Shown here one piece after another: positions 21,043-64,000 of a stretch of DNA of 64,000 nt (its first letter is position 1; every line of letters starts with the position of its first letter). The translations under genes were made by a program, and so were the position numbers. The notes beneath the pieces were generated by a model, which ran no database searches, was not told the origin of the DNA, and saw nothing but the letters and a program-made list of their open reading frames with translations. Origin of the DNA: an uncultured Gammaproteobacteria bacterium (lineage in GTDB: Bacteria > Patescibacteriota > Microgenomatia > Levybacterales > UBA12049); NCBI GenBank assembly GCA_964515545.1, contig CAZERI010000002.1:57612-121611 (forward strand), given 5' to 3'.

Positions 21043-21045
21043 AGT

Positions 21046-44793: not shown

Positions 44794-44943
44794 TTATAGT
44801 CACCTCCTTCCAAACAGAGTATAGAGTATAAAGCGTCTAGTAGCTAGCGTCTAATTCTTAGGGATAAGTAATGGTCAACTATGCCCTATTAACTAGATGC
44901 TATTCATAATTGATCGTTTCAAGATTCAGTGTATAATTAGGAG

Positions 44944-45705
44944 GTGAGTGATATCTCAGTCTCTGTAATAATCCCCTGCTATAACGAAATGGCCAATCTC
45001 CGTAAAGGAGTCCTGGATAAAGTAGATAGGTATCTTACCAAGCGTAAAAAATCTTTTGAGGTTATCATAGCTGATGATGGATCAAATGACGGCAGTGTAG
45101 AATTTATCCGCGAATTTATTAAAGACCATAAAGAGTTTACTCTTCTTGAAAATAAGCATATGGGTAAAGCAGGAGCAGTTACTGCAGGGATCTTAAAAGC
45201 CACAGGTAAATACCGCCTTTTTTCAGATATGGACCAGGCAACTCCTATCGAGGAGATGGATAATCTACTTCCTTTTTTTGATGAGGGATATGATGTAGTC
45301 ATAGGCTCACGGAGTAATAGAAGGAAGGGATCTCCTCTTATCAGGCAGTTTATTTCACGTTCCCAGGTCGTTCTCCGAAAGACTATTGTAGGGTTACACG
45401 ATCTCTCTGATACCCAGTGTGGATTTAAGATGTTTCGAGGAGATATCGCAGAGACTCTTTTCAGTAGAGTCAAAAAAATCCATAATGGTTTTAAGACGAT
45501 AAGCGGTTCAAATGTCACTTCAGGATTTGATATCGAGCTGCTTTTTATAGCAGAGAAGATGGGGGCTCGGATTAAGGAAGTACCAGTTCAGTGGCTTTAT
45601 GTAGAGACCAGAAGAGTCAATCCTATTAAAGACTCCATCCAAGGAGTGATGGATCTTATCACGATTAAAAAGAATGCCCTCAATGGAATGTATTCAAAGG
45701 TATGA
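44944..45705 (+). CDS. GT2 polyprenol-phosphate sugar synthase-like glycosyltransferase (DPM1/GtrB/ArnC-type)
   Basis: VSVIIPCYNE...IIADDGSNDGS...DMDQ (DxD) in a 253-aa soluble GT-A. GTG start 6 nt after a TATAAT box. Stop overlaps the next gene (ATGA). Confidence 0.85.
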   Translation: MSDISVSVIIPCYNEMANLRKGVLDKVDRYLTKRKKSFEVIIADDGSNDGSVEFIREFIKDHKEFTLLENKHMGKAGAVTAGILKATGKYRLFSDMDQATPIEEMDNLLPFFDEGYDVVIGSRSNRRKGSPLIRQFISRSQVVLRKTIVGLHDLSDTQCGFKMFRGDIAETLFSRVKKIHNGFKTISGSNVTSGFDIELLFIAEKMGARIKEVPVQWLYVETRRVNPIKDSIQGVMDLITIKKNALNGMYSKV

Positions 45706-46898
45706 GAGATTTATTTTTCCGACCGAGTAGGTTACTCATAGGTCTTTATCTAATCCCTCTTCTCTTATTATTTTTTTATAGTTATACCCAGGTTGATCTA
45801 GGTCTTACCCTAACACGAGCTTCTTTTGCCACAGATATCCAAAAAGCTTTCCAATACGTAGGTTATTTTAACCGACCTTTATCGACAGTTCTCTACTTTC
45901 TCATCATTCTTTCTCTCTTTAAGTTCTATGGACTTTTTCTCTATTTTGCTAAAAAGGGTACGCTTTCTAAAAATACACTCTGGAAAATAATTTTTGCTGT
46001 GGCTGCAATTTTAGTCTTTTCCTATACTGCCTTTTCCTATGATCTTTTTAACTATATTTTTGATGCTAAGATCCTGACTCACTATCACCTTAATCCTTAT
46101 ATGTACAAGGCTCTCGATTTTCCAGGGGATAAAATGCTCTCATTTATGCACTGGACGCATCGGACCTATCCTTATGGTCCTACCTGGCTTTTTTTGACAG
46201 TTCCTTTTTCTTTCTTAGGCTTCCAGGTCTTCATCCCGACATTTTTTCTTTTCAAAATTTTAGCCGGAGGGATGTATCTAGCATCAGTCTGGGCGGTAGG
46301 GAGGATTATGCAGATTATCTCTCCCAAAAAAGAAGTATTAGCGCTTACTTTTTTTGCGCTTAATCCACTGGTTATTGTCGAGACGCTTGTCTCAGGCCAT
46401 AACGATGGTGCCATGATGTTCTTGGCACTTATAGGTGTACTATTTTTGATCCAGAAAAAATATATATTAGCCTTTGTACTTCTTTTATTATCAATCGGAG
46501 TAAAGTATGCGACAGGATTTCTCCTGCCTCTTTTTGTCGTAATTTTTCTCTTTGAAAAACGCCACATTGCTATTAAGTGGGGAACGATTTTTCTGATTTT
46601 TATTATTACTATGATTCTCGCGCTCTTTGCAGCTACATTGAGGTCTAATTTCCAGCCATGGTATTTGATGTACCTTCTTCCTTTTGCGGGGCTTATTTCT
46701 GATGAAGACTATGTTCTTTATCCCATATATATCCTCTCGATTATGGGGCTTTTGAATTACCTGCCGTATTTATTTACCGGGAATTGGGATCCACCGATTC
46801 CTGCTATTCTTCTGGCGATTAACCTTATGGGAAGTGTTATTGCTTTGGTAAGTTTTGTATGGTTCTATCAGTATAAAGGGAAAAAAGCTCATGCATAG
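45702..46898 (+). CDS. Polytopic GT-C-like membrane glycosyltransferase (DUF2029/GT87-like)
   Basis: 398 aa with about 11 TM helices; translationally coupled to the upstream GT2. Confidence 0.55.
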   Translation: MRDLFFRPSRLLIGLYLIPLLLLFFYSYTQVDLGLTLTRASFATDIQKAFQYVGYFNRPLSTVLYFLIILSLFKFYGLFLYFAKKGTLSKNTLWKIIFAVAAILVFSYTAFSYDLFNYIFDAKILTHYHLNPYMYKALDFPGDKMLSFMHWTHRTYPYGPTWLFLTVPFSFLGFQVFIPTFFLFKILAGGMYLASVWAVGRIMQIISPKKEVLALTFFALNPLVIVETLVSGHNDGAMMFLALIGVLFLIQKKYILAFVLLLLSIGVKYATGFLLPLFVVIFLFEKRHIAIKWGTIFLIFIITMILALFAATLRSNFQPWYLMYLLPFAGLISDEDYVLYPIYILSIMGLLNYLPYLFTGNWDPPIPAILLAINLMGSVIALVSFVWFYQYKGKKAHA

Positions 46899-46945
46899 CT
46901 CGTAAGCATTGCTTAGGCTTAAGTTTTTACTCTATAATTTTTACT

Positions 46946-48463
46946 ATGCGTTTTATCGCGAAATATCGACGTGAAATAATACTCTGTCTGGCTCTTGTTA
47001 TCGTCTTTTTCCTTCTGAGACTCTTAACGCTTACCCAGCTGCCCATCTTTACTGATGAGGCTATTTATCTCAGGTGGGCGCAGATTGCTAAAAATGATGC
47101 CAATTGGCGGTTTATTTCACTTACTGACGGTAAGCAGCCTCTTTTTATATGGCTTGTCGTGGGGGCGATGAAATTTTTCCATGATCCATTAATTGCAGGA
47201 AGGATCGTCTCAGTTTTTGCAGGATTAGGAACTGCGATAGGACTTTTTTTTCTAGGACGTGAGGTCTTTAAAAATCGCTTTGTCGGGATTATCTCTTCTT
47301 TTCTCTATGTAATTTTTCCTTTTGCGCTGGTCTATGACAGGTTGGCTCTCTATGATTCTCTGGTCGGTACCTTTATCGTTTGGGGACTCTATTTTACCTT
47401 TCTTCTAGTCAGAAGACTTCGACTCGATTATGCATTACTGATGGGATTTGTCACAGGAGCTGCAGTCCTTAACAAGACAAATGGCTTTTTTACTATTTAT
47501 CTTCTACCGTTTAGCCTTATTTTATTTGATTTTAAGCAGAAAGGCTGGAAGAAAAAACTGTTTCTCCTTTTAGGTCTTAGTATCGTGGTCGTAGTGATGA
47601 CGTATGGATTTTATTCACTTCTGAGACTTTCTCCGTTTTTCTATATCATTAATGAGAAAAATCATATTTTTTTCTATCCGGTGTCTGAATGGATTAAAAA
47701 TCCGCTCGCTTATTTTCTGCCTAATATTTCTGCTTTTAATGACTGGACACTCCGTTATGTAGGACTGCCTTTGCTAGTTACCGCTCTGGGAGCATTTTTC
47801 TTGAGTAAGTCATACATGAGAGAGAAGCTGCTGCTTTTGGCGTGGTTCCTTGTCCCTTATCTCGGATTTGCACTAGATGGAAAGACTATTTACCCAAGAT
47901 ACATCTTCCCCATGACGTTATCTCTCCTGCCTCTTATTGCATATAGTCTCACTCTCTTGGCCAAAAAATTTGGGGGATGGAGAGTATATCTCCTTTTCTT
48001 TCTTGTTATTTGCTATTCACTTTTTACGGACTTTTTGATTTTGTATAACTTTTCTAAGTCTCCAATTCCTAACTCTGATAAGAGTCAGTATTTGACAGGC
48101 TGGCCGTCTGGTCTTGGTGTTAAAGAAGCTGTAGATTATCTGACTGAAAGAGCGAAGAAAAATCATATCTACGTCGGGACTGAGGGGACTTTTGGACTCA
48201 TGCCTTATTCGCTTGAGATTGCTTTTGCTGCTAATCCAAATGTTACAGTAAAAGGCTTCTGGCCCATTAATGAGCTTCCTCCAAAAGAACTTCTGGATGC
48301 CTCTCAAAAAGAAGAGACGTATGTCCTTTTCTATCAGGACTGTCCTAGCTGTGAAAGTGTCGGTGTCGCACCAAGTACCTGGCCTCTTCAACAAGTTTTA
48401 CAGGTTAAGAAAATAGAGCCAGGAGTCTATCTGACGCTCTATAAAGTGATGGGAGTTAAATGA
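46946..48463 (+). CDS. GT-C membrane glycosyltransferase, ArnT/PMT-like (GT39/GT83-type)
   Basis: LTQLPIFTDEAIYLRWAQI first-loop DE motif typical of ArnT/PMT, about 12 TM helices; 505 aa. Confidence 0.7.
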   Translation: MRFIAKYRREIILCLALVIVFFLLRLLTLTQLPIFTDEAIYLRWAQIAKNDANWRFISLTDGKQPLFIWLVVGAMKFFHDPLIAGRIVSVFAGLGTAIGLFFLGREVFKNRFVGIISSFLYVIFPFALVYDRLALYDSLVGTFIVWGLYFTFLLVRRLRLDYALLMGFVTGAAVLNKTNGFFTIYLLPFSLILFDFKQKGWKKKLFLLLGLSIVVVVMTYGFYSLLRLSPFFYIINEKNHIFFYPVSEWIKNPLAYFLPNISAFNDWTLRYVGLPLLVTALGAFFLSKSYMREKLLLLAWFLVPYLGFALDGKTIYPRYIFPMTLSLLPLIAYSLTLLAKKFGGWRVYLLFFLVICYSLFTDFLILYNFSKSPIPNSDKSQYLTGWPSGLGVKEAVDYLTERAKKNHIYVGTEGTFGLMPYSLEIAFAANPNVTVKGFWPINELPPKELLDASQKEETYVLFYQDCPSCESVGVAPSTWPLQQVLQVKKIEPGVYLTLYKVMGVK

Positions 48464-50130
48464 AATTTTTCACTAAAAAAACTATATTTTTTCTCTCTCT
48501 GATTGTTTTAGTCTCTCTTCTTATTATCCTTCCATTTTTCCATAAAGGCTACTTTCCCACTCATGATGGGGAGTGGGCGGTTGTTCGTCTGGCGGATATG
48601 TACCGAGAGATAAGAGACGGACAGATTCCTCCTCGCTTCAGCGGTAACTTGAATTTTGGCTATGGATATCCTCTCTTTCAGTATGCTTACCCCATGCCTT
48701 ATCTTTTAGGTCTGCCTGCTTTTCTGCTACATTTTGGTCTGGTAAATAGTATCAAACTCCTTTTTGCTCTCTCAGTACCTCTTAGCGGAATTGCGATGTT
48801 TTTTGCAGCGAGGGAGCTATGGGAGGAAGATGATGCGGGACTTATCAGTAGTCTCCTTTATATGTATTTGCCGTATCGTATGGTCGATTTATACGTAAGA
48901 GGATCACTTGGAGAATCTATAGCCTCAATCACATTCCCGATTATTTTATTTTGCATGAAGCGATTGTCTCAAAAACAATCAGTCTCTACACTTATTCTCC
49001 TCTCTTTATCATTTGCAGTACTTATCCTCAGCCATAATATTATGGCTGTTTTGTTCGGTATTATTCTTGTTGTATATCTCCTGTTCCTCCTTCTTCATGA
49101 GAAAAAAATAAATACCTTCCAAATTCTCATAGGGTTTGGTGTGGGGGCAGGAATAGCTACATTTTTTTGGCTTCCTGCTCTTTTGGAAAAAAATCTTATT
49201 TTACTTTCAAAGATACCTATTGCTGATAGGAATCTCTACTATGTGACACTTCCAAAGTTATTGTTTTCTCCTTTTGGCTATGGAACTCCGACAGAGAGCA
49301 ATCCTTTTACGTATCAGATAGGTATTCCGCAGATAACCATCGGTATTGTCGCGTGTTATTTATCAGTGATGTCGCTTTTTAAGAAGAAGAAGGTGAGGGG
49401 AGATATGATACTTTTTACTACTCTCTCAGTATTTTTCATCTTGATGATGTTACCACTAAGCAGAGTAATCTGGGAGCAGACTCCACTTCTTAGAGAGATT
49501 AATTATCCCTGGACGTCACTTTTTCCTCTAGGGCTTCTTTTAAGTCTTCTTGGCGGAAAAATATTTACTGCTACCAAACAGTATTTCATTATGGGGATTT
49601 TCCTTGGACTTTTTGCAATAGTATTTACCCTTCCCTACGCGAGGCCCAATTCATTTGTGGATAGAGGAGATGGGTTCTATCTCACCAATGATGGTACTAC
49701 CACATCAAGCAGTGAGCTGATGCCCTTAACTGTCAAAACATTTCCGGTGAGTCGTCCTCAAAAGAGAGTAGAAGTAGTAAAAGGTGAGGGTAATGCTGAG
49801 ATAACTTCTGATAAATCTCAGAAAAAAATTATTGCACTTAATTTGAGTACGCCTAGTACAATAAGGCTTAATACGATTTATTTTCCAGGATGGCACTGGT
49901 ATAGGGATGGAAGACAAATACCCATCAGCTATAACAATCCCCAAGGCGTAATGGAAGCACAACTTCCTCAGGGCAGTTATACTGTCACTGCCTCCTTTGA
50001 AAATACTATGGTGAGGATAGCAGCAAATATTATTTCAGGACTTTCTATATTTATTGTATTTGCAGCTCTTCTTATACGAGCGATTAAGCCATACTCACTT
50101 TCTTCTCTTACTGCTCATTATTTCTCATGA
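48460..50130 (+). CDS. GT-C-like membrane protein (paralog A)
   Basis: N-terminal loop HDGEWAVVRLADMYREIRDGQIPPRFSGNLNFGYGYPLFQY, about 13 TM helices, C-terminal beta-rich domain ending in a TM. ATGA coupling on both sides. Confidence 0.55.
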   Translation: MKFFTKKTIFFLSLIVLVSLLIILPFFHKGYFPTHDGEWAVVRLADMYREIRDGQIPPRFSGNLNFGYGYPLFQYAYPMPYLLGLPAFLLHFGLVNSIKLLFALSVPLSGIAMFFAARELWEEDDAGLISSLLYMYLPYRMVDLYVRGSLGESIASITFPIILFCMKRLSQKQSVSTLILLSLSFAVLILSHNIMAVLFGIILVVYLLFLLLHEKKINTFQILIGFGVGAGIATFFWLPALLEKNLILLSKIPIADRNLYYVTLPKLLFSPFGYGTPTESNPFTYQIGIPQITIGIVACYLSVMSLFKKKKVRGDMILFTTLSVFFILMMLPLSRVIWEQTPLLREINYPWTSLFPLGLLLSLLGGKIFTATKQYFIMGIFLGLFAIVFTLPYARPNSFVDRGDGFYLTNDGTTTSSSELMPLTVKTFPVSRPQKRVEVVKGEGNAEITSDKSQKKIIALNLSTPSTIRLNTIYFPGWHWYRDGRQIPISYNNPQGVMEAQLPQGSYTVTASFENTMVRIAANIISGLSIFIVFAALLIRAIKPYSLSSLTAHYFS

Positions 50131-51791
50131 AAAAGCTATTTATACTTCTGGTAATTCTTCTTTCTTTACCTACTATTTGGCCCCTTTTTCAGCAGGGGTT
50201 ATTCCCCATGCACGATGATACTCAGACAGCCAGAGTTTTGACGATGGGCAAGGCGCTCCACGATGGTATGCTTCCGGTACGCTGGTCTGATTACTTAGGC
50301 TATAACCTCGGGTATCCGATCTTTAACTTCTATGCACCGCTTGCTTACTATATAGGAGGGATTTTTACTTTTTTTGGATTTTCTGCCCTCCTATCTACGA
50401 AAATTATGATGGGGGTGGGGATGGTGCTGGCTGGTGTGAGTATGTACTTACTTGCCAGCTCACTTTTTGGCAAGAAAGCCGGACTGATTGCTAGTGTCTT
50501 TTACCTCTATGCTCCTTATCATGCTCTGGATTTATACGTGAGGGGAGCAGTGAGTGAGCTATGGGCATATGCACTTCTACCGCTTCCCTTTTATGGGTTG
50601 TGGGGGATTTATAAGACTAAGAAGTTCCGTTATGTCATAGTATCCTCAGTATCTTTAGCAGGTATTATTATTTCCCATAACTTAACTGCCATGATGGTAC
50701 TGCCCTTTGTCATAGGAAGTATTATCTGCTTATCGATAGCATCAGGAAAAAAAAGAGAGTTTACGGCACTTTATCTCTATGGTACTAGCCTCATAATAGG
50801 GCTGCTGCTTAGTTCTTTTTATGCAGTTCCGGCGTTTTTGGAGATGCAATATACCAATGTCACTTCAGTACTTGGTGGAGGTTCAAACCCTCTCGACCAC
50901 TTTATCTGTCCTCTACAGCTCTGGCAGAGTATGTGGGGATATGGGGGCTCTACTCCTGGGTGTATTGACGGGATGTCATTTATGCTTGGAAAGATCCACG
51001 TAGTATTTATTATTGGAGGAGTTGTGGCAGCAGGATACCTCCTTAAAAGTAAGCGCTATCAGGATTTCTCCGTGATGGCAGGCAGTTTTGTAGGGTTGGG
51101 ACTCTCACTTTTTATGACACTCAGTTACTCATCATCTATTTGGCAAAGTATTTCCCTTTTATCCTTTATCCAGTTTCCTTGGAGATTTTTATCCATTGCT
51201 TCTCTTGCATCCGCAGTTATTGCAGGGGGGGTGATAACAGTCTTGGGTAGAGTTAAGCCGTTTATTGCTCTTGTAGTAACGCTTGTTTTTAGTATTATCT
51301 GTGTCTTTTTCTATGGCAAATACTTTACTCCACAGTATAGTGATCACAATACTGCCAAGTATTCAGATTTATCTCAAATCATGTGGAATGTCTCAAAGAT
51401 TTCTGATGAATATCTTCCAAAAGGTATTATAAAACCTACGTCTCAAAAGGAAGTCGCAATAGGTCTTATTCAGCCTATTACCAGTAAGATTCAGATTCAC
51501 GATATAGTCGAGAAAACTCAGACGAAACGTATTAGTCTCACGTCATCCCAGGGTTCTGTAAGGCTGAATATAGCCTCATTTCCTGCCTGGCAAATAAAAG
51601 TGGATGATAAAGAGATCAAGCCTAGGATTGTCCATGGTTTATATGAATTTGATTTATCTGAGGGGGCGCATAGAATTGAGGCTGTATTCGTCCAGACGCC
51701 TCTTGAATTGGTGGCTGATATTCTAACTATTGTTGGCCTTTCATTCGTTATTCTTGGTATAATAAGAACACGTAAGAGTAAGTCGCTATGA
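50127..51791 (+). CDS. GT-C-like membrane protein (paralog B of 48460-50130)
   Basis: MHDDTQTARVLTMGKALHDGMLPVRWSDYLGYNLGYPIFNFY aligns with paralog A; the C-terminal FPAWQIKVDDKEI...IEAVF region aligns with FPGWHWYRDGRQI...VTASF. Confidence 0.55.
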   Translation: MKKLFILLVILLSLPTIWPLFQQGLFPMHDDTQTARVLTMGKALHDGMLPVRWSDYLGYNLGYPIFNFYAPLAYYIGGIFTFFGFSALLSTKIMMGVGMVLAGVSMYLLASSLFGKKAGLIASVFYLYAPYHALDLYVRGAVSELWAYALLPLPFYGLWGIYKTKKFRYVIVSSVSLAGIIISHNLTAMMVLPFVIGSIICLSIASGKKREFTALYLYGTSLIIGLLLSSFYAVPAFLEMQYTNVTSVLGGGSNPLDHFICPLQLWQSMWGYGGSTPGCIDGMSFMLGKIHVVFIIGGVVAAGYLLKSKRYQDFSVMAGSFVGLGLSLFMTLSYSSSIWQSISLLSFIQFPWRFLSIASLASAVIAGGVITVLGRVKPFIALVVTLVFSIICVFFYGKYFTPQYSDHNTAKYSDLSQIMWNVSKISDEYLPKGIIKPTSQKEVAIGLIQPITSKIQIHDIVEKTQTKRISLTSSQGSVRLNIASFPAWQIKVDDKEIKPRIVHGLYEFDLSEGAHRIEAVFVQTPLELVADILTIVGLSFVILGIIRTRKSKSL

Positions 51792-52504
51792 CCAAACTTC
51801 CTGAGTTATCAATTTTCTTCCCTTTCTGGAATGAAGAGGCAAATATAGCAGCTGTTGTCCAAAAAGCTTTGGAGATAGCTCCTACCATTGCTGATAAATT
51901 TGAAATATTAGTTGTGGATGACGGCTCTTCAGATCGCACTCTGGAAAAAGCTACTGAACTTTCTAAGAAGCATTCCCGTATTAAAGTCATCTCACATAAG
52001 GTAAATAGAGGCTATGGTGCAGCGCTTCGTTCGGGTTTTGAACATGCCCAGTATGACTATATAGTCTTTACTGATGGGGATCTTCAATTTGATTTTTCAG
52101 AAGTTACTAAATTTGTTGAGAAGATAGATCAGGCAGATATGGTAATCGGATTCCGTAAGAAAAGACGCGATAATAAACTGTTCAAAAGACTTCTTCTTAT
52201 GAATCTCTTAAAGGCTTGGGACTTTATATTATTTGGTTTTTATTTCAGAGATATTGACTGCGGATTTAAGATGTTTAAGAAAGAGGCAGTTGATAAGATT
52301 GGACCTTTTCATTCAGAAGGAGCCATGATTACGACTGAGATTTTAGCTAAAGCCACGGCTAAAAAACTAAAAATTATTCAGATAGGCGTTAATCATTATC
52401 CAAGGGAACATGGTGAGCAGACAGGTGCAAATCTTTTTGTAATTGTGAGAGCAATTCTTGAGAGTCTCAGTCTTTTTGCTGATATTAAGAATAAACGTTT
52501 CTAG
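51788..52504 (+). CDS. GT2 polyprenol-phosphate sugar synthase-like glycosyltransferase (DPM1-type)
   Basis: LSIFFPFWNEEANI...LVVDDGSSDRT...TDGDLQFD; 238 aa. Confidence 0.85.
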   Translation: MTKLPELSIFFPFWNEEANIAAVVQKALEIAPTIADKFEILVVDDGSSDRTLEKATELSKKHSRIKVISHKVNRGYGAALRSGFEHAQYDYIVFTDGDLQFDFSEVTKFVEKIDQADMVIGFRKKRRDNKLFKRLLLMNLLKAWDFILFGFYFRDIDCGFKMFKKEAVDKIGPFHSEGAMITTEILAKATAKKLKIIQIGVNHYPREHGEQTGANLFVIVRAILESLSLFADIKNKRF

Positions 52505-52507
52505 TGT

Positions 52508-53959: not shown

Positions 53960-53963
53960 GTAT

Positions 53964-54887: not shown

Positions 54888-54889
54888 TA

Positions 54890-56556: not shown

Positions 56557-56820
56557 TTACTTCTTTTTTCTTGAGAGCATTTTAGGCCATGTCTTTATCT
56601 CGGCAAGGGTAAGAGGTTTTTTAGCAAATTTGAAGAGATAAATCAGTTCGAGTATTCCGATCGAATTAACGATAAGGAATATAAAAATAACAACAAACCA
56701 TATCTTTTGTCCCTCTCTGGATGCCCTCCACAAAGCTGCACCTTTCCAGAAGACAGACCAGATACTAAGTACTATGATGAGGATCTGCATTTGGATATTC
56801 ATGTGGATAAATCGTAGCAC
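56557..56820 (-). CDS. Small membrane protein (2 TM), hypothetical
   Basis: 87-aa hydrophobic ORF, the only minus-strand gene inside the plus-strand glycosylation island. Confidence 0.4.
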   Translation of the reverse strand: MLRFIHMNIQMQILIIVLSIWSVFWKGAALWRASREGQKIWFVVIFIFLIVNSIGILELIYLFKFAKKPLTLAEIKTWPKMLSRKKK

Positions 56821-56865
56821 AGCTATCCCAGAAATGCAAAAACTTGCTACAATACTAATGAGTTT

Positions 56866-57939
56866 ATGAAGATAGCTATTTTTGATCCATACTTAGATAC
56901 CATGTCGGGCGGAGAAAAATATATGCTCTCCATTGCGATGTCACTATCTAAAGATCATGACGTAAGCATCCTCTGGGATGAGCTATCAAGAAAAGACATT
57001 CTTGATAAAGCAAATCTGCGATTTGGATATGATTTAGCAAAATTCACCTTTGTTCCTTCTTTTTTTGATAAGAAAATCAGTTTTTTACATCGGTACGAAT
57101 TATCAAAAGAATATGATCGAATTATTGTTCTGAGTGATGGGAGTATTCCTGTCGTTGCTTGTCCTCTTATTCTTCATTTTCAGTCTCCTATGAATTGGGT
57201 AAAAGGTAAGACTCTCAAAAATCAATTAAAGCTTACTCGAGTTAAAAAGATTCTAGTGAACTCCCACTTTACAAAGAATTATATCGATAAGATATTTTCT
57301 AAAAAAAGTATAGTTCTTTATCCTCCTGTTACGATCCAGAGAACGTATGATCCAAAGAAAAAAAAGAATAAAATTTTAAATGTCGGAAGATTTGGTATTA
57401 ATCAGGCAGGATCGAGTTTTAAGAAACAGGATATTCTGGCAGATACGTTTGTAAAGATGCATCATGAGCTTTCCGGCTGGGAGCTTGTTTTTGTCATGAG
57501 TCTGATGGATAAAGATAAATCTGCTTTTGAGAGTTTTAAAAAGGACTATACCGCGTATCCAATTAGGTTTTTATTAAACCCCTCAAATAATGATTTGTGG
57601 GATGAGTATGAGAGTGCCAGTATTTATTGGCATGCTTCAGGGTATGGTGAGGATCTTATAGATCATCCGGATAGAGCCGAACACTTCGGAATTTCTACAG
57701 TTGAGGCTATGGGGACAGGAGCTGTCCCTGTGGTCGTTGCTGCAGGGGGCCAAAAAGAGATCATTACTGATGATAAAAATGGTCGACTTTGGTCTACGCT
57801 GGAGGACCTTCAATCACAGACTTTGGATCTTGCTACAGATAAAACTCAGAGAGAAAGGCTTGCCTTACAGGGAATAAAGGATGCAGAAAATTTTTCGCTT
57901 CAGAAATTCAGTAAGCAGATTAATGAATTAGTAAGATGA
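56866..57939 (+). CDS. Glycosyltransferase family 4
   Basis: C-terminal EHFGISTVEAMGTGAVPVVVAAGGQKEII.DDKNG (GT4 E-x7-E region); 357 aa. Confidence 0.8.
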   Translation: MKIAIFDPYLDTMSGGEKYMLSIAMSLSKDHDVSILWDELSRKDILDKANLRFGYDLAKFTFVPSFFDKKISFLHRYELSKEYDRIIVLSDGSIPVVACPLILHFQSPMNWVKGKTLKNQLKLTRVKKILVNSHFTKNYIDKIFSKKSIVLYPPVTIQRTYDPKKKKNKILNVGRFGINQAGSSFKKQDILADTFVKMHHELSGWELVFVMSLMDKDKSAFESFKKDYTAYPIRFLLNPSNNDLWDEYESASIYWHASGYGEDLIDHPDRAEHFGISTVEAMGTGAVPVVVAAGGQKEIITDDKNGRLWSTLEDLQSQTLDLATDKTQRERLALQGIKDAENFSLQKFSKQINELVR

Positions 57940-60161
57940 ATATAAAAAAATTTGTAGGCATTTTTTTTATTATTGCTGTTGTTCTTATCTTTTTTAGATC
58001 AGTATTTTCATTTACCAAAGTCCCAATTCCTACGGATGTATTGGTAAATCTTTTTAATCCCTACAGAGATTATTATGCAGCTTCTTATCCGCGAGGTGTC
58101 CCTTTCAAAAATCCTCTGGTCGGAGATCCGGTGCTTCAGCAGATTCCATCCAGACAATTATCGCTTGAGCTCTTGAAGAAGGCAGAACTACCTCTCTGGA
58201 ATCCCTACCAAATGGCAGGTTATCCGCTTCTTGGTAATATTCAGTCGGCTCCTTTTTATCCGCTTAATATTCTTTTTTTTCTCCTTCCTTTTGTTCCTGC
58301 CTGGACTATCTTTATTATGCTTGAGCAAATCTTAGGCGGAATATTCATGTTTTTTTATCTGAGAAACCGCTCTCTTTCTCAGGAAGCAAGTATTTTTGGA
58401 GGGTTGGCTTTTAGTTTTAGTGGTTTTTTCATCGCCTGGCTTGAATGGGGAACGATTGCCCATACTGCATTATGGATCCCGTTAGGACTTCTGGCTATAG
58501 ATAAAATTCTTATATCCAAAAGTAACTATTGGTATGGCCTTTTTTGCCTTTCATTAGTCTGTTCTTTTTTGGCAGGACATCTCCAGACATTTATCTATGG
58601 ATTTCTCCTTTGGATTCTTTATTTTCTTTATTACTGGTATAAGGATAGAAATAAAAGGATATTACTCTTTACTATTTTTACCCTATTTGTAGGAGGAATT
58701 ATCACCTTTCCTATCTGGTATGCGCAGCTCAATCTCATTTTGCTCTCTGCCCGGAACGTAGACCTTACTTGGCAGAAGCTGGGGTGGTTTATTCCTCTAG
58801 CTCAGCTTATTCAATTTTTTGCTCCTGATTTTTTTGGTAATCCTGCAACAGGTAATTATTGGGGGGTCTTTAATTATGGTGAATTTATAGGCTATATTGG
58901 GATGGCTCCGCTTATATTTGCAGTTCTAGCTTTATTTTCAAAAAAGCGTAAAGACGTACTACTGTGGGGAGGTCTAGTCATAATCTGTCTGATCTTGGCT
59001 ACCCAAAATCCTCTCGCTCAGCTTCCTTATACATTCTCAATTCCCTTCTTCTCCTCAGCCCAACCGACAAGACTTCTTGTCTTGGTGGATGTCGCGCTTG
59101 CAATTCTTGCTGCTATTGGATTTGAGACAATAAGCAGATCTAAAGAAAAATTACTAAAACCTATCATACTTGTGCTCGGCTTTATAGCAATTATTGTCTA
59201 TGGGTTTGTTCTTCTGAGTGTCCATAATTTTAGTGTTTCAGATTTTACAGTCACGAAGAGAAATCTCATAGTCCCTAGTGCATTATTTTTCCTGACTTTT
59301 GGAGTGCTGCTTTTCTCACAGGTGATACCTCCTGCCAAAAGGAGAATTCTGTTCTATTTAGTAATTGGAGTTACAGTCGCTGATCTCCTTTTCTTTGCGG
59401 GTAAGTATACTCCTTTTGCCCCAACAGAATACTATTATCCAACTACCAAGGCATTGGCATATCTGACTGAGCATGCGGGACAGTCACGTATCATGACAAC
59501 AACCCGGCAGATATTTTCACCAAATATTGCTACGATGTATCACCTGCAGAGTGTTGATGGATATGATCCGTTATACATTATGCGGTTTGGAGAGATGATG
59601 GCTGCATCAGAGCGGGGGAAAGCAGACATCTCCACTCCATTTGGATTTAATAGAATAGTTGTCTCTAATAAAATAAATTCACCAATAATTGATCTGTTAG
59701 GAGTGAAATATATTCTTAGCCTGACTGAGAGAGATGATCCAAAACTAAATAAGGTCTTTGAAGAAGGAGAGACAAAAATATATGAAAATAAGTCTGCTTT
59801 CCCCCGCTCATTTTTTGTAAGTAATGTAGTAAAAGCTGATTCTCCTCAGAAGGCTATCCAGCTTATGTTTGACTCAGCAGTTGATCTCCATAAGACTGCA
59901 GTTGTTGAAGATACTGAGTCCCTCTCATCATCCTACTCAGTAGGTACTGCATCAATACAGACATATTCTCCAAATAAAATTATTATTTCAACAAAAAATA
60001 GTAAAGAAGGCTTTCTTATCTTTACCGATACGTTCTATCCCACATGGAAAGCAGCTATAGATGGTCGTCAAAGTAAGATCTATCGAAGTGATTACAATTT
60101 TAGAGGGGTTGTTGTGCCTGCCGGTACCCATACTGTAGAATTTAGAAATACATTATTATGA
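57936..60161 (+). CDS. YfhO-like GT-C membrane glycosyltransferase
   Basis: 741 aa; WNPYQMAGYPLLGNIQSAPFYPLNILFF and a multi-TM core with a large C-terminal extracytoplasmic domain, as in the YfhO family. Confidence 0.65.
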   Translation: MNIKKFVGIFFIIAVVLIFFRSVFSFTKVPIPTDVLVNLFNPYRDYYAASYPRGVPFKNPLVGDPVLQQIPSRQLSLELLKKAELPLWNPYQMAGYPLLGNIQSAPFYPLNILFFLLPFVPAWTIFIMLEQILGGIFMFFYLRNRSLSQEASIFGGLAFSFSGFFIAWLEWGTIAHTALWIPLGLLAIDKILISKSNYWYGLFCLSLVCSFLAGHLQTFIYGFLLWILYFLYYWYKDRNKRILLFTIFTLFVGGIITFPIWYAQLNLILLSARNVDLTWQKLGWFIPLAQLIQFFAPDFFGNPATGNYWGVFNYGEFIGYIGMAPLIFAVLALFSKKRKDVLLWGGLVIICLILATQNPLAQLPYTFSIPFFSSAQPTRLLVLVDVALAILAAIGFETISRSKEKLLKPIILVLGFIAIIVYGFVLLSVHNFSVSDFTVTKRNLIVPSALFFLTFGVLLFSQVIPPAKRRILFYLVIGVTVADLLFFAGKYTPFAPTEYYYPTTKALAYLTEHAGQSRIMTTTRQIFSPNIATMYHLQSVDGYDPLYIMRFGEMMAASERGKADISTPFGFNRIVVSNKINSPIIDLLGVKYILSLTERDDPKLNKVFEEGETKIYENKSAFPRSFFVSNVVKADSPQKAIQLMFDSAVDLHKTAVVEDTESLSSSYSVGTASIQTYSPNKIIISTKNSKEGFLIFTDTFYPTWKAAIDGRQSKIYRSDYNFRGVVVPAGTHTVEFRNTLL

Positions 60162-61108
60162 AAATTAGTGTTGTAATCCCAAGCTATAATGGCCAGGAGC
60201 TTCTTTCAAGTAATCTTCCTAAGGTAATTTCTGCACTCCTTTATACGAAAAAGGAAAAAAAGATTGAATCAGAAATAATTGTTGTTAATGATGGCTCAAG
60301 TGACGGGACAGTATCTTTTATGGAAGAATTTATTTCAGCGCATAAAGAAGTCCCAATTTTTCTTAAAGATAATAAAAGAAATCTCGGTTTTTCTCCGACA
60401 GTTAATAATGGAGTGAGAGAGGCCAGAGGAGAGATAATTATTTTGCTGAATACTGATGTAATTCCTGATAAAGATTTTATCTTACCGCTTCTTCCTTATT
60501 TTGATGATGAGAGGACCTTTGCTGTAGGATGTATGGATAAAAGTATCGAGGGAGATAAAGTTGTCCTGAGAGGAAGAGGAGTTGGTATGTGGAAAGAAGG
60601 CTATCTCAAGCATAGGCTTGGGGATTTAGATAAAAACGATACTTTGTGGGTAAGTGGCGGAAGCGGAGCTTTTCGGAAAAGTCTGTGGGATAAATTAGGA
60701 GGATTGTGCGAATTATACAAGCCGTATTATTGGGAAGATATCGATCTTTCATACCGAGCACTAAAGGCTGGATATGCTGTCTATTTTGAGAAAAAAAGTA
60801 TAGTAATCCATAAGCATGAAGAAGGAGTTATCAAGAAAACGCAGCCAGCTAGTAAGGTTCTGGAGATTGTTAATCGAAATCAGAATATCTTTACTCTTTT
60901 AAATGCGACTGATCTTGCTATTTACGGTGGCTACCTCTTATTTCTGCCTGTCCATATCCTTAGAGCACTAAAGAATAACGAATGGCTTTACTTGAAAGGG
61001 TTAGCGAAAGCTCTTCTTATGCTTCCACACATTATGTCGGCTAGATCTCACTATCAGAAGTTAGTAAAAGTCTCAGATCATGACGTCATCGCCAAAATTA
61101 AAGCATGA
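60158..61108 (+). CDS. GT2 family glycosyltransferase
   Basis: ISVVIPSYNGQELL...IVVNDGSSDGT...LNTDVIPD. Confidence 0.8.
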   Translation: MKISVVIPSYNGQELLSSNLPKVISALLYTKKEKKIESEIIVVNDGSSDGTVSFMEEFISAHKEVPIFLKDNKRNLGFSPTVNNGVREARGEIIILLNTDVIPDKDFILPLLPYFDDERTFAVGCMDKSIEGDKVVLRGRGVGMWKEGYLKHRLGDLDKNDTLWVSGGSGAFRKSLWDKLGGLCELYKPYYWEDIDLSYRALKAGYAVYFEKKSIVIHKHEEGVIKKTQPASKVLEIVNRNQNIFTLLNATDLAIYGGYLLFLPVHILRALKNNEWLYLKGLAKALLMLPHIMSARSHYQKLVKVSDHDVIAKIKA

Positions 61109-63033
61109 TTTTTATTCAATTAATTTTTTTTATAGTTCTTGTCTATCTCTTTCTTTATGCCCCGGGTAGATATCTGGTAAGGACGACAAAGCTTTCTTAT
61201 TCTCCATGTATTACGGTGCTTCTCTCCTTGGGAGCAGGAATTGCAGTACTTCTTCTGAGTGCATACCTTTTTGCATGGGTAAAGCTTGAGTGGATGGCGT
61301 TGGTTTTGACTGGTATTCTGACAGTGCTGGATAGAGGACAGTCTTTAGGGGAGCTTTCTGTTTTTGTAAAAAAACTGAGGAATTATCCCTTGGAGACAGT
61401 TCTTTTAATGAGTGGAATTATCGGGATGTGTTATCTCACCTGGCGGTCGGGGATAGAGATAGGGGGAGAGTACTACTTTTATGGCGTAAATTCGGTTGAT
61501 TCGTTATACCATTTAGCTCTTATTGGTAACCTCACACATACTTTTCCTCCAGAGCATTTTGGCCTCAGCGGAATTCCGCTGAGGGGATATCATTTTTTTT
61601 ATGATTTTCTGATAGCTCTTTTTGCAAAATATTTCCATTTTCAGATAACTGATCTTTATTTACGATTTTTTCCTTTGTTGGTAAGCTTTTTATATGGAGT
61701 GAGTTTTATTGGATTTTCTCAGTACTTTACCTGGAAGAAAGATGTCACACGAGGTATAATCTTTGTAGTCTTTTTTCTCAGCAACTTTGAATTTTTCTTC
61801 AATTATTTTGTCCATTCTGAGCTCCTTGTCCATATTCCTGAAGGATTGACTCAGATACTTGATCCCTCAGTTCCATTCTCAATAGCGCTCTTTATTTGCG
61901 GGTATATTCTCTTTAGTACTAAAGGAAAAACACTTCCCCAGACTCTCCTGGCAGCTTCAGTAATAGGTATTTTGCCCATGATAAAAGTCTATACAGGATT
62001 CTTATTCTTTGCTGGATTAGGGTGCGTTCTGCTCTGGAGTATTGTGAAAAAAGAATATCAGAGACATCTCCTTTTGATCATAGCTTCAGGAATTATCGCA
62101 GGGATGGTGTACTTGCCGGTGAATTTTGGGGCAGGAAGTTTTATCTTTGCTCCATTTTTATACTGGAGACACTTGATGGAAGGGTCTCATTTCTTCCAGG
62201 AACTTCATTTTCCTCTTCAGTATCTTATCTTTCAAGAGCATTCTAATTTTCCTAGGATGGCATTTATTATTGCGGTTATAGGAGGAGTATTTTTTATTGA
62301 GACACTTGGATGGCGAATTCCTGCGGGGATTATCTATTTACTAAAAGAAAGGAAGAAAAAAATCAGAACTGATATTAGAAGTATTTTCTGGATTGGTGTA
62401 TTTTTGGCAGGTATATTTATCCCGATCCTTTTTATCCAGAGTAGTAGTGTCTTTAATATTGTTCAGTTTTACTGGATTATTGTGACGCTTTCTTTGCCTT
62501 TTTTTGTATTTCAGGTTCAGGTGATTACAGCTCAGTGCCATAAAAGATATATTTTCCTTGTCTGGACTGTTATTGTTCTCTCAACGCTTCCATCGCTTAT
62601 TCTCCTTTTCAAGGAGTACTCCTCTAATCCGACTATTATTCCCAGTACTACTGTAGAGCTGACTAAGAAAATTTCATCCAGTGTACCTATAGACCAGTCT
62701 ATACTCATTCTTGACACAAAAGATAAGAGTCAAGTCCCTCTCTTCTCATCTCTTACTGCGCGTTCTATGTATCTGGAGACTGAGGGTATAGATTTTTCCT
62801 CTATGAAAAATGTCATCTATGATCGAGAGCAAAAAATTGATAAAATTTTAGATGTGGCAAAGAACTGTAATGACTTCACAAAACAGAAAGACACGCAAGA
62901 AATGGTAAGCCTGATTTTATCGACTAACTCACATTATTTTGTCACCTCTCCCTTCTCGTGTCTTGAAAATAATGCTTCTTTTAAAATTCTTTTTACTACT
63001 CCTAATCAGCAGTTGGTTCATGTAATAAAATGA
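61105..63033 (+). CDS. Large polytopic membrane protein (GT-C-like or polymerase-like), hypothetical
   Basis: 642 aa with more than 14 TM helices; ATGA coupling to GT2 genes on both sides. Confidence 0.5.
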   Translation: MIFIQLIFFIVLVYLFLYAPGRYLVRTTKLSYSPCITVLLSLGAGIAVLLLSAYLFAWVKLEWMALVLTGILTVLDRGQSLGELSVFVKKLRNYPLETVLLMSGIIGMCYLTWRSGIEIGGEYYFYGVNSVDSLYHLALIGNLTHTFPPEHFGLSGIPLRGYHFFYDFLIALFAKYFHFQITDLYLRFFPLLVSFLYGVSFIGFSQYFTWKKDVTRGIIFVVFFLSNFEFFFNYFVHSELLVHIPEGLTQILDPSVPFSIALFICGYILFSTKGKTLPQTLLAASVIGILPMIKVYTGFLFFAGLGCVLLWSIVKKEYQRHLLLIIASGIIAGMVYLPVNFGAGSFIFAPFLYWRHLMEGSHFFQELHFPLQYLIFQEHSNFPRMAFIIAVIGGVFFIETLGWRIPAGIIYLLKERKKKIRTDIRSIFWIGVFLAGIFIPILFIQSSSVFNIVQFYWIIVTLSLPFFVFQVQVITAQCHKRYIFLVWTVIVLSTLPSLILLFKEYSSNPTIIPSTTVELTKKISSSVPIDQSILILDTKDKSQVPLFSSLTARSMYLETEGIDFSSMKNVIYDREQKIDKILDVAKNCNDFTKQKDTQEMVSLILSTNSHYFVTSPFSCLENNASFKILFTTPNQQLVHVIK

Positions 63034-63773
63034 AGTTATCAATAGTTATACCAGTCTATAATGAAGAGAGGACAGTAGCGGAAGTAATAAGAGAAGTGAG
63101 TGATGTCCTAATTGACGATCCTTCGACGAGCTCAGGACAAGTTAAGAAGGAAATTATCGTTGTTAACGATGCCTCTAGTGATAAAACAGGTGAGATCCTC
63201 CAGAGATTAGAGAAATCAAATAAAGATCTCGTTGTGGTGACGCATGCGCAAAATAAAGGGAAAGGTGCTGCTGTCCGAACCGGATTTGCTAAAGCCACAG
63301 GAGATTATATCGTTATTCAGGATGCTGATTTAGAGTATAACCCCGATTATTTTAAAGTTCTCCTTAAACCTATCCTCTCAGGTAAGACGCAGGTGGTATA
63401 TGGAACCCGACTTAAAAAGCTTCCTAAGCTTACTCAACATGGTACGATGGGTAAGACCCGTTTTCTCCTCCATTTTTTCGGTAATAGGTTCCTTAGTCTT
63501 GTTACCAGTATTCTTTATTTACAGTGGGTTACTGATATGGAAACCTGTTATAAGATATTCCCTCGAGAGTTCCTTAGGACAACGACACTTCATGGCAATG
63601 GGTTTAATTTCGAACCGGAAATTACTGCTAAGCTGATCAAGGCTGGTTACCATATCGTTGAAATACCTATCACTACTAAGCCAAGAGGATATGATGATGG
63701 TAAAAAGCTCCAGACAGTCCCCGAAGGAATTGAAGCAATAAAAACATTATTTAAATATCGTTTTAGCAAATGA
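63030..63773 (+). CDS. GT2 polyprenol-phosphate sugar synthase-like glycosyltransferase (DPM1-type)
   Basis: LSIVIPVYNEERTV...IVVNDASSDKT...QDADLEYNPDYF; 247 aa. Confidence 0.85.
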   Translation: MKLSIVIPVYNEERTVAEVIREVSDVLIDDPSTSSGQVKKEIIVVNDASSDKTGEILQRLEKSNKDLVVVTHAQNKGKGAAVRTGFAKATGDYIVIQDADLEYNPDYFKVLLKPILSGKTQVVYGTRLKKLPKLTQHGTMGKTRFLLHFFGNRFLSLVTSILYLQWVTDMETCYKIFPREFLRTTTLHGNGFNFEPEITAKLIKAGYHIVEIPITTKPRGYDDGKKLQTVPEGIEAIKTLFKYRFSK

Positions 63774-64000
63774 AAGTCGCAGAATTTTTTATAAATCCGC
63801 GCGGATTTATTTTTCTTGCAATTGTTGTCTTTGCTGTTCTTATCCGCTTTACCTCTCTTTCTTCTCTACCGGTATCTCTCTATTGGGATGAGGTGTCTGA
63901 AGGCTATAATTCCTACAGTATCCTTCATACAGGAAAAGACGAATACGGCACGTCTTTCCCCCTTCTTTTTAGAGGCTATGACGATGATAAGATGCCGGTC
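63770..64000 (+). CDS. GT-C membrane glycosyltransferase, PMT/ArnT-like (partial; runs off window end)
   Basis: ATGA overlap with the upstream GT2; ...LSSLPVSLYWDEVSEGYNSYSILHTGKDEYG matches the first-loop DE motif of GT39/GT83 enzymes. Confidence 0.65.
   Translation, partial: MKVAEFFINPRGFIFLAIVVFAVLIRFTSLSSLPVSLYWDEVSEGYNSYSILHTGKDEYGTSFPLLFRGYDDDKMPV

Follow-up and report, generated by a model that had tools for sequence, protein, structure and literature searches.

A gene island in a CPR genome combining candidate polyprenyl-phosphate sugar synthases, a Wzx-type flippase and multiple GT-C-type membrane proteins

The window analysed was a 64,000-nt stretch of DNA, and the region from 44944 to 64000 contained 16 plus-strand ORFs encoding seven GT2 proteins, one GT4 protein, one Wzx/MOP flippase and seven polytopic GT-C-type proteins, the last count taking in a 642-aa protein and the final gene, which is incomplete at the window end. 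All 16 ORFs were found at the positions given in the original prediction, and its family labels agreed with the Pfam and NCBIfam profile matches. Its estimate of a 19-kb island was too small: on an identical contig (L001), which showed 0 mismatches to the window across an overlap of 12,896 nt, the island continues for 9 kb or more after the window end, which adds three PMT_2 genes and three further polytopic genes. The whole island spans at least 29 kb and includes at least 21 genes, at least 12 of which are of GT-C type. The genome belongs to the Patescibacteria (CPR) and is Microgenomates/Levybacteria-like, so that the earlier guess of a CPR origin was correct. The span from 44944 to 64000 was approximately 98% coding, and the tight packing predicted for nearly all genes was borne out, with 13 of the 15 junctions measuring 4 nt or less (ten 4-nt ATGA overlaps and three gaps of 2-4 nt); the wider gaps were 47 nt (before 46946) and 309 nt (56557-56865). 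ATGA overlaps had been proposed for three pairs of a GT2 gene and a membrane protein gene. Two of them were present (44944 to 45702 and 63030 to 63770), but the GT2 stop at 52504 and the Wzx start at 52508 were separated by a 3-nt gap.

Three of the GT2 proteins, designated GT2s-A (253 aa, 44944..45705), GT2s-B (238 aa, 51788..52504) and GT2s-C (247 aa, 63030..63773), were small and TM-less. The start of GT2s-A is ambiguous, being either GTG at 44944 or an in-frame ATC at 44953 (after AGGAGG). GT2s-A matched Pfam Glycos_transf_2 (4.3e-25), contained the motifs DMD and DTQCGFKMF, and had ArnC (1e-14), PfDPMS (3e-14) and GtrB (7e-13) as its top PDB sequence matches. GT2s-C matched NCBIfam AglJ (4.6e-31) and, in the PDB, PfDPMS (6.5e-15, residues 1-242), ArnC (2.5e-12) and GtrB (7e-11). 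The predicted structure of GT2s-B, the sole one of the three that was modelled, also had ArnC, PfDPMS and GtrB as its best matches. All three proteins combined a GT-A fold and a DXD motif with closest likeness to characterised Pol-P-sugar synthases, and the alignment with known synthases held at motif level. The best PDB sequence matches favour the earlier view of these proteins as polyprenol-P-sugar synthases rather than polymer synthases; judged by sequence, the three are most likely polyprenyl-phosphate sugar synthases, with GT2s-B the strongest candidate. No C-terminal TM anchor was predicted in any of them, and the proteins end at 238-253 aa, which excludes a GtrB/ArnC architecture but not Pol-P-sugar synthase activity. 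Because their best scores against the ArnC, PgfS, AglJ and PpgS NCBIfam equivalogs (70-108 bits) were far under the cutoffs (325-529 bits), the matches do not allow a sugar specificity or an orthologous relationship to be named. It is very improbable that the three are conventional soluble glycosyltransferases whose acceptors are not lipids but, for example, small molecules or proteins, a reading that would make their adjacency to membrane proteins incidental to the compactness of CPR genomes.

The proteins encoded at 45702, 46946, 48460, 50127, 57936, 61105 and 63770 have 8-13 TM helices and either show the GT-C fold or belong to a GT-C family. The first of these (398 aa, 45702..46898), whose gene overlaps that of GT2s-A, is GT87/MptA-MptB-like with 9-11 TM helices; it scored 24.4 bits against Pfam GT87, slightly under the cutoff of 25, and matched NCBIfam MptA (TIGR03459; 3.3e-18, 65.8 bits against a cutoff of 439) and MptB (39.4 against 40), and its homologs at 49-57% identity carry PF26314 MptA_B_family. 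GT-Cs of the MptA/MptB type are known to take their sugars from Pol-P-monosaccharides. The next gene (46946..48463, 505 aa) encodes a PMT_2/ArnT-like protein (Pfam PMT_2 3.5e-11, PMT 4e-7) with a weak ArnT match (3.6e-6) and an acidic TDE directly after TM1. It is followed by two PTPS_related/YfhO-like paralogs sharing 27.6% identity, of which the first (48460..50130, 556 aa; Pfam PTPS_related 7e-8) has HDGE after TM1 and the second (50127..51791, 554 aa; 6.8e-16) has HDD at this position and a weak C-terminal YfhO match. In hhalign comparisons, the PTPS_related profile matched YfhO (95%, E 1.8e-8) and PMT_2 (90%, 1.9e-6). The DE, HD.E or HDD directly after TM1 recurred in the PMT_2-like and PTPS_related proteins, with sidedness predicted by a hydropathy/positive-inside heuristic only. 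Further downstream, a YfhO-family protein (57936..60161, 741 aa; Pfam YfhO 1.7e-21) has 11 TM helices and a predicted 250-aa C-terminal extracytoplasmic domain, and is 51% identical to a Levyibacteriota homolog. The last gene (63770..64000), of which only the 5' end lies in the window, is complete in L001, where it encodes a 556-aa PMT_2 protein (1.6e-13), the first of three tandem PMT_2 paralogs.

The 642-aa protein (61105..63033), a predicted membrane glycosyltransferase that had been left unplaced, has a GT-C fold. It has 12-13 predicted TM helices, and no family model for it was found in Pfam or NCBIfam. The family, which together with 688-aa members comprises approximately 1,900 representatives, has no acidic residue after TM1, but the large loop that follows TM3 contains D132 and H136, both invariant. 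The family also has a structural match to the C-terminal globular domain of AglB-S2. It carries no WWDXG-type motif, and none of the solved OSTs matched it in sequence. With neither WWDXG nor detectable STT3 homology, the 61105 protein does not qualify as an STT3/AglB/PglB oligosaccharyltransferase.

The remaining glycosyltransferases are probably cytoplasmic. The four other GT2 proteins match PcManGT, GmaR or GlfT2, unlike the three small ones. The 307-aa protein at 53964..54887 (Pfam GT2 4.5e-16), which is not of DPM1 type, had GmaR as its best PDB match (7e-12) and is a paralog (33% identical) of the 251-aa protein at 55801..56556 (Pfam GT2 1.3e-17). Between them, the 304-aa product of 54890..55804 (Pfam GT2, Glyco_transf_7C) resembles rhamnosyl- and galactofuranosyl-transferases (NCBIfam rhamnosyltransferase 3.9e-16, GlfT1 3.5e-9; PDB GlfT2 3e-5). 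The fourth (60158..61108, 316 aa; Pfam GT2 2.4e-25, Glyco_tranf_2_3 1e-17) is of uncertain subtype; its best PDB match was PcManGT (6yv7, 5e-10), and matches to DPMS, GtrB and ArnC reached only about 1e-6 and were limited to the N-terminal region. Its gene always lies directly 5' of a GT-C gene, of the 642 family in L011 and of PMT_2 type in L007. The single GT4 protein (GT-B fold, 357 aa) is encoded at 56866..57939 (Pfam Glycos_transf_1 2.5e-12).

The island encodes a single protein of flippase type, the 483-aa product of 52508..53959, whose 13 TM helices and matches to Pfam Polysacc_synt_3 (1.2e-46, 159.7 bits, cutoff 23), Polysacc_synt (7e-21, 75.2 bits) and the NCBIfam MOP flippase (3.5e-34) place it in the Wzx/MOP family, characterised by the Polysacc_synt domain and about 12-14 TM helices. 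Its role may differ from that implied in the original prediction, the flipped substrate being either an Und-PP-oligosaccharide or a Pol-P-monosaccharide. A scan of the island and of most upstream ORFs of at least 200 aa revealed no gene for a phosphoglycosyl transferase, an LCP ligase, a Wzy/WaaL-type protein or a GtrA flippase and no nucleotide-sugar gene, and the pathway as seen is therefore incomplete. A classical Wzx pathway would have all GT2 and GT4 enzymes acting in the cytoplasm on one Und-PP-oligosaccharide that Wzx then flips, and would make some of the polytopic proteins a polymerase, ligase or en-bloc transferase rather than monosaccharide transferases. We regard this as unlikely for several reasons: the small GT2s are closest to Pol-P-monosaccharide synthases (in sequence, and in structure for the one modelled), the island and the scanned upstream ORFs yielded no gene for a priming phosphoglycosyl transferase, a Wzy or a WaaL-type protein, the 642-aa family has neither a WWDXG-type motif nor a sequence match to a solved OST, and PMT_2 and YfhO GT-Cs have been characterised as users of Pol-P-monosaccharides (PMC8035078). 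Such a pathway may also coexist with extracytoplasmic glycosylation for part of the island.

The genes had been thought to form one transcription unit of 15 genes. This single-operon view fails because a gene on the opposite strand lies inside the region and -10 boxes occur before 46946 and 56866. The minus-strand gene (56557..56820) encodes a small 2-TM DUF5652 membrane protein (Pfam DUF5652 3.6e-20), occupies the 309-nt gap and, in convergent orientation, extends right up to the 55801 stop codon; DUF5652 is likewise convergent after the 55801 homolog in L014. The region comprises at least three same-strand transcription modules, to which promoters were assigned tentatively from consensus matches only. 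A promoter-like TTGATC-16-TATAAT at 44910..44937 (plus strand), just upstream of the first gene at the start of module A, had the top plus-strand score in the region (10/12). A perfect TATAAT at 46933..46938 (plus strand), 7 nt before the ATG at 46946 and within the 47-nt gap, is a possible internal promoter giving module B, which ends with the 55801 gene, a leaderless start. An extended -10-like TGcTACAAT at 56845..56853 (plus strand), 12 nt before the ATG at 56866, is a possible promoter for module C. Generic scans did not exceed shuffled sequences for promoters (65 vs 52±8 expected) or terminators (17 vs 16±4), and an AT-rich palindrome at 56548-56565 with a T-run, spanning the stop of the 55801 gene, was weak (z -1.55). 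The original prediction had considered a break-up by promoters or terminators into unrelated operons; the unit is indeed broken, but the resulting modules are related.

The gene order was seen again in independent CPR genomes at protein identities of 25-68%, indicating that it is not a chance arrangement. Three pairings (GT2 to Mpt/GT87-like, GT2 to Wzx, and GT2 to PMT_2) recurred in these genomes: GT2s-A precedes the Mpt-like GT-C gene in L014 and L015, the adjacency of PTPS_related (50127), GT2s-B and Wzx is kept in L010, L014 and L015, and GT2s-C precedes PMT_2 in L012 and L014. A second, paralogous pair of Wzx and a small GT2 was present in L007 and L009. Genes for a candidate lipid-sugar synthase (GT-A), a flippase and a GT-C transferase lie side by side in the island, and this adjacency is kept elsewhere. 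In L014, the GT2s-C and PMT_2 pair occupies another position in the cluster, implying that it moves as a cassette. As modules shuffle between genomes, they may act independently on several acceptors and not make up a single pathway. It is conceivable, although we think it somewhat doubtful, that the locus is a storage site, where independent two- or three-gene glycosylation cassettes for different acceptors (for example, a lipoteichoic-acid-like polymer, a wall polysaccharide, or proteins O-mannosylated by PMT_2 enzymes) became clustered by joint exchange and duplication. The division into three or more transcription modules, the gene on the opposite strand, the tandem paralogs, and the variable position and copy number of cassettes (GT2s-C and PMT_2 elsewhere in L014; 642 and GT2s-C missing from L007) are consistent with this explanation, as is the finding that Firmicutes have multiple distinct GT-A/GT-C pairs, which serve different polymers (PMC8035078). 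However, the order GT2s-A, Mpt-like, PMT_2, two PTPS_related, GT2s-B, Wzx, GT2 and onwards is shared by the window, L014 and L015, with identities of 30-68%, and with 13 of 15 junctions at 4 nt or less, the linkage exceeds that expected for unrelated cassettes.

We consider that the island probably directs extracytoplasmic glycosylation through at least three modules, in which lipid-linked sugars feed outer-face GT-Cs. The original prediction had proposed a multiplied Gtr/Arn-type logic, and the families (small DPM1/ArnC/GtrB-type GT2s with several GT-Cs) and pairings agree with it. The sequences show which genes are present, their folds and families, and the pairings and order kept between genomes; from these we infer the enzymatic activities, membrane sides, coupling within pairs, sugars and acceptor in the following scheme. 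The GT2 proteins at 44944, 51788 and 63030 would load polyprenyl phosphate with a monosaccharide taken from a nucleotide sugar, working at the inner membrane face, where they are probably held by amphipathic helices and the polytopic protein encoded alongside. The lipid-linked sugar would then be flipped, for which the candidate is the Wzx/MOP protein, whose gene follows that of GT2s-B, the most conserved synthase, after 3 nt. Outside the membrane, the seven GT-C enzymes in the window (at least 12 in the island), namely the Mpt/GT87-like, PMT_2/ArnT-like, PTPS_related/YfhO-like, YfhO and 642-aa family proteins, would use these donors, each presumably forming one linkage on a surface glycopolymer and/or surface proteins. 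With three synthases for at least 12 GT-Cs, most GT-Cs are without a dedicated adjacent donor gene. The four other GT2s and the GT4 would act in the cytoplasm and probably build a lipid-linked core or repeat unit, which Wzx may export too. The mechanism itself is known; what is unusual is the number of repeats.

The candidate synthases differ from several known ones in membrane architecture. PfDPMS (P. furiosus, 5mlz) has a four-helix TM domain, and CsbB, GtrB and ArnC each have two C-terminal TM helices, whereas the small GT2s of the island have none and consist of the catalytic domain followed by a C-terminal helix. Human DPM1 is built likewise and needs DPM3. In the CsbB/GtcA/YfhO and GtlA/GtlB systems, which glycosylate LTA/WTA in Bacillus, Staphylococcus and Listeria, a GT2 synthase adjoins a YfhO or PMT_2/ArnT-like GT-C as in the island, and a GT2 synthase likewise lies beside a GT-C in GtrA/GtrB/Gtr(type) O-antigen glucosylation and ArnC/ArnT lipid A modification. 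In contrast to the CsbB and Gtr systems, the island is without a GtrA/GtcA-type flippase, and the widely missed equivalog cutoffs indicate that the small GT2s are not orthologs of the synthases of these systems.

A similar composition is found in one of the Gram-positive multi-component transmembrane glycosylation systems, that of the S. pyogenes group A carbohydrate GlcNAc side chain, consisting of GacI (TM-less GT-A), GacJ, GacK (Wzx-type) and GacL (PMT_2 GT-C) (Rismondo et al. 2021, PMC8035078), in which GacI/GacJ show that a TM-less synthase with a separate membrane partner exists; CsbB/GtcA/YfhO is the second precedent (PMC8035078). The island similarly places side by side a candidate synthase that has no anchor of its own, a flippase of Wzx type and not of GtrA type, and a PMT_2-type GT-C, and the PTPS_related/GT2s-B/Wzx triad in the window has a Gac-type composition. 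The island differs in its CPR host and in its numbers, with three candidate synthases and at least 12 GT-Cs where the Gac system has a single one of each; no rhamnan genes and no GacJ homolog were found in the island, where the only small membrane gene is the opposite-strand DUF5652 gene.

The actinobacterial Ppm1 with Pmt/PimE/MptB/MptA/MptC system carries out Pol-P-Man-dependent protein O-mannosylation and LM/LAM mannan synthesis. Mycobacterial genes are scattered and those of the island packed; PimA/PimB and Emb/Aft-type genes were not identified in the island, and mannose specificity of its donors is only putative. The two resemble each other in a TM-less catalytic GT2 with a membrane partner, in the sharing by several GT-Cs of one outside pool of lipid-linked mannose (proposed for the island), and in the MptA/MptB-likeness of the 45702 protein, which scores at the family thresholds or slightly under them. 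A bolder and rather improbable version of extracytoplasmic glycosylation is that a CPR surface glycan or glycoprotein coat is built largely outside the membrane via a GT-C relay, with Wzx flipping polyprenyl-P-monosaccharides and the 642/688-aa family acting as a new en-bloc transferase or polymerase. If so, this family would stand in for the missing Wzy/WaaL/OST functions, and a mycobacterial LM/LAM-style strategy would operate in a lineage with genomes of roughly 1 Mb.

The glycosylation island comprised 16 consecutive plus-strand ORFs running from 44944 to the end of the window, and the ORF list reproduced all of the coordinates in the original prediction. Ten junctions were 4-nt ATGA overlaps and three were gaps of 2-4 nt, and the two remaining junctions were wider, with 47 nt preceding 46946 and 309 nt preceding 56866; approximately 98% of the island span in the window was coding. 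The ATGA overlap claimed between the GT2 gene at 51788 and the flippase gene at 52508 proved to be a 3-nt gap. Pfam and NCBIfam searches upheld the predicted gene families almost one for one: GT2 glycosyltransferases (44944, 51788, 53964, 54890, 55801, 60158, and 63030), a GT4 (56866), a Wzx/MOP flippase (52508; Polysacc_synt_3, 159.7 bits), a PMT_2/ArnT-like protein (46946), two PTPS_related paralogs (48460 and 50127), a YfhO protein (57936), and a GT87 (formerly DUF2029)/MptA-MptB-like protein (45702) with scores at or just below the cutoffs, all on the plus strand. The 642-aa protein encoded at 61105 (+), with 12-13 TM segments, fell into no Pfam or NCBIfam family.

The island had been described as a single transcription unit, and it is not demonstrably one operon. 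A minus-strand ORF with a Pfam DUF5652 match (3.6e-20) was located at 56557-56820 inside the 309-nt gap, which argues for at least two transcription units. This gene is convergent with the last GT2 gene of the preceding module, which ends at 56556, and the stop codons abut on a palindrome rich in AT (56548-56565) that has flanking T-runs on each strand; its fold was weak and only marginally better than that of shuffled sequence. A TGcTACAAT box lay 12 nt 5' of the ATG at 56866, a perfect TATAAT lay 7 nt 5' of the ATG at 46946, and TTGATC-16-TATAAT, which scored best among the promoter-like matches of the region, ended 6 nt before 44944. Because generic promoter and terminator scans gave counts that were not above those of shuffled sequence, these sites are leads and not proof. 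Three units (44944-46898, 46946-56556, and 56866 onward) are more likely than two. The start of the first GT2 gene was ambiguous (44939-44955): the GTG at 44944 directly abuts an AGGAGG and lies 6 nt past the TATAAT in a leaderless-like arrangement, and an in-frame ATC at 44953 is an alternative start with ideal SD spacing. The exact 253-aa product was absent from the public protein collection, and the neighbouring proteins were present. A convergent DUF5652 gene was also observed in the related Patescibacteria locus L014 (18524-18714, minus strand). By analogy with GacJ, this 2-TM mini-protein could serve the glycosylation machinery as a small membrane partner, or be simply a conserved neighbour.

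The 642-aa protein was encoded on several public contigs, and identical contigs were present in SRR12487046, DRR783867, and SRR16642447. One contig, L001, was identical to the window throughout an overlap of 12,896 nt and showed further genes downstream, and the island thus does not end at 64000 after 19 kb as had been claimed. The truncated last ORF (63770) is full length in L001 and encodes a 556-aa PMT_2 protein. It is followed by two more PMT_2 paralogs of 550 and 537 aa (35-37% mutual identity), by polytopic proteins of 580 and 504 aa without a Pfam match, and finally by a 688-aa protein that is a distant paralog of the 642-aa one, at 26% identity. The island therefore spans at least 29 kb and contains at least 21 genes, at least 12 of which are polytopic GT-C-type genes. 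Named homologs came from Levybacteria, Saccharimonadales, and 'Patescibacteria group' MAGs, and in a scan of genome contigs the nearest species representatives were Levyibacteriota, at 41-55% identity. Judged by the named homologs, the organism belongs to the CPR bacteria, in line with the original guess.

Two further PMT_2-type GT-C genes were observed approximately 8 kb upstream of the island (34142-35872 and 35887-37437, both minus strand), one of them 29-31% identical to the downstream tandem PMT_2 paralogs; beside this pair, HlyIII-like, DUF1775, and ferric-reductase-like membrane genes occupied 37437-40738. Other carbohydrate or envelope genes of the window were a GT4 adjoining a GDE_C/MGH1-like glycoside hydrolase (14988-17558) and a GH18 family protein adjoining a D-Ala-D-Ala carboxypeptidase (19714-22098). 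Crp-family regulators were encoded at 11856-12551 and at 43602-44246, the second approximately 700 nt upstream of the island. The sole Rfam match of the window was a tRNA gene (41840-41912, plus strand), and the mechanical ORF that overlaps it (41823-42251) is probably spurious. The remainder of the window consisted of ordinary housekeeping genes.

The three small GT2s without TM segments, GT2s-A (44944), GT2s-B (51788), and GT2s-C (63030), had ArnC, the P. furiosus Dol-P-Man synthase, and GtrB as their best PDB sequence matches (E 1e-11 to 5e-21). The alignments spanned nearly the full catalytic domain, and the DXD, D..CGFK(M/I)F, and (P/E)RE.GE motifs were kept. The best PDB matches of the other four GT2s were PcManGT, GmaR, or GlfT2. 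As far as computation allows, these matches place the small GT2s with polyprenol-P-sugar synthases, as predicted, and not with the cytoplasmic polymer synthases that the prediction had named as its refutation. GT2s-B was unusually conserved, with 65-89% identity over more than 120 clusters.

Among the polytopic proteins, PMT_2, YfhO, and PTPS_related are recognised families. In hhalign comparisons, a profile built on the PTPS_related paralogs matched the island YfhO protein (95%, E 1.8e-8) and the PMT_2 paralogs (90%, E 1.9e-6), and the PMT_2-like and PTPS_related proteins carried acidic motifs straight after TM1 (TDE, WDE, PDE, HDGE, and HDD). The profile of the 642-aa family showed a distant relationship to the PMT_2 paralogs (86%, E 5e-6) and, when compared with all PDB sequences, matched no solved structure. 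The 642-aa protein has a loop with conserved D132 and H136 but no WWDXG-type motif, and it is therefore classed as a GT-C and not as an STT3-family enzyme. Its assignment as an STT3/AglB-type oligosaccharyltransferase was accordingly rejected, both the defining motifs and sequence homology being absent. With 1,883 representatives at E<=1e-3 and 914 at <=1e-30, this is a large family, for which neither Pfam nor NCBIfam has a model. Versions of approximately 1,150 aa with an additional N-terminal region of approximately 500 aa were observed (P0264, P0267, P0274, P0284, P0287, P0291, and P0294); this region had no Pfam match and no similarity to any island protein, and these fusions were therefore uninformative as Rosetta-stone links. 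The 580-aa protein, with 9 TM segments, is encoded at 17601-19343 of L001, approximately 4.7 kb past the window end, and homologs were observed in loci L007, L009, and L012 of other CPR genomes. It showed 45-60% identity between genomes, an invariant H-E-x-Y-P-D-E-F-D-N motif after TM1 (containing PDEFDN), no Pfam match, and no profile similarity to the PMT_2 paralogs; it may represent another unrecognised GT-C-like family.

The best-supported reading, drawn from fold, family, and gene order, with everything further inferred, is that the island encodes a multiplied multi-component transmembrane glycosylation system. The small GT2 synthases would make polyprenyl-P-monosaccharides at the inner face of the membrane, and a flippase would then carry them across, a role for which the island offers only Wzx and no GtrA-type gene. 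The GT-C series, drawn from several families, would transfer the sugars outside the membrane. The four other GT2s and the GT4 would build a cytoplasmic, probably lipid-linked, core, and Wzx may export this core too. A second rival explanation assigns the island to an oligosaccharide pathway of the purely classical, Wzx-dependent kind. The larger ORFs of the window, together with part of the small ORFs upstream of 44 kb, yielded no gene for a priming phosphoglycosyl transferase and no LCP, Wzy/WaaL, GtrA, or nucleotide-sugar gene. The proposed multi-component system could have a wall polymer, a lipoglycan, or surface proteins as its acceptor.

To compare the predicted GT2/GT-C coupled pairs with other CPR genomes, related loci were annotated against the island proteins, and the pairings recurred. 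GT2s-A followed by the Mpt-like gene (45702) was found again in L014, with the ATGA overlap, and in L015; both loci also contained PTPS_related, GT2s-B, and Wzx in the same succession, and L010 had these three genes in the order PTPS_related, Wzx, GT2s-B. GT2s-C followed by PMT_2 reappeared in L012 and L014. In L014 this last pair separates two GT2 genes that are neighbours in the window, and it thus behaves like a mobile cassette of two genes. In L007 and L009, a second Wzx, paralogous to the first, preceded a small DPM1-like GT2. The absence from L007 of the pair formed by the 642-aa protein gene and GT2s-C, together with the frequent tandem paralogs, indicates that modules are gained, lost, and shuffled. 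The main rival explanation treats the island as a set of cassettes that work independently on different acceptors; both this rival and the classical pathway can be compatible in part with a multiplied transmembrane system. L014 is a Patescibacteria contig of 1.08 Mb; there, the 46946 PMT_2 homolog was split into two ORFs (4168-4752 and 4781-5689; 194 and 302 aa), suggesting a frameshift or pseudogene, or an assembly error. The stretches 3' of the 688-like GT-C gene in L007 (14327-18455) and L009 (10866-16118) contained an NAD-dependent sugar epimerase/dehydratase, GT4 genes, and the second Wzx with its small DPM1-like GT2, which hints at what may lie past the end of the available contig of this genome.

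CPR/Patescibacteria, most of which have not been cultivated, are attached to other cells and possess very small genomes; for these reasons, their surface display, about which almost nothing is known, is central to their biology. In a lineage where a related genome assembles as a single 1.08-Mb contig, an island that takes up at least 29 kb represents a large investment, and it would define the genes for a CPR cell-surface glycan as a concrete, conserved, and testable set. The compact candidate Pol-P-sugar synthases without TM segments, with their defined GT-C partners, are useful for structure, biochemistry, and glyco-engineering; the repeated Wzx-synthase pairings are relevant to the still open question of which flippases transport polyprenyl-P-monosaccharides, and the 642-aa family is a large GT-C family that Pfam does not yet model. 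Searches of the accessible literature found no dedicated study of GT-C, YfhO, or protein glycosylation in CPR/Patescibacteria, nor a description of islands of this kind, which is weak evidence because subscription literature lay outside their scope. A brief mention of approximately 8 'dolichol-phosphate mannosyltransferase' genes in Peribacteria (PMC4736985) was the single relevant item.

Among described systems, the closest are GacI/GacJ/GacK/GacL, with a TM-less GT-A, a Wzx-type flippase, and a PMT_2 GT-C, and CsbB/GtcA/YfhO (PMC8035078). The next nearest are ArnC/ArnT, GtrABV, and the actinobacterial scheme of Ppm1 with Pmt/MptA/MptB. The underlying mechanism is this established three- or multi-component scheme, and the island is useful and testable, yet not very surprising to a specialist. 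The island stands out in several respects. It combines at least 12 GT-Cs with three candidate synthases at a single locus, TM anchors of the synthases and GtrA are consistently absent, Wzx is repeatedly paired with a synthase, one GT-C family lacks a Pfam model, and the host is a CPR bacterium.
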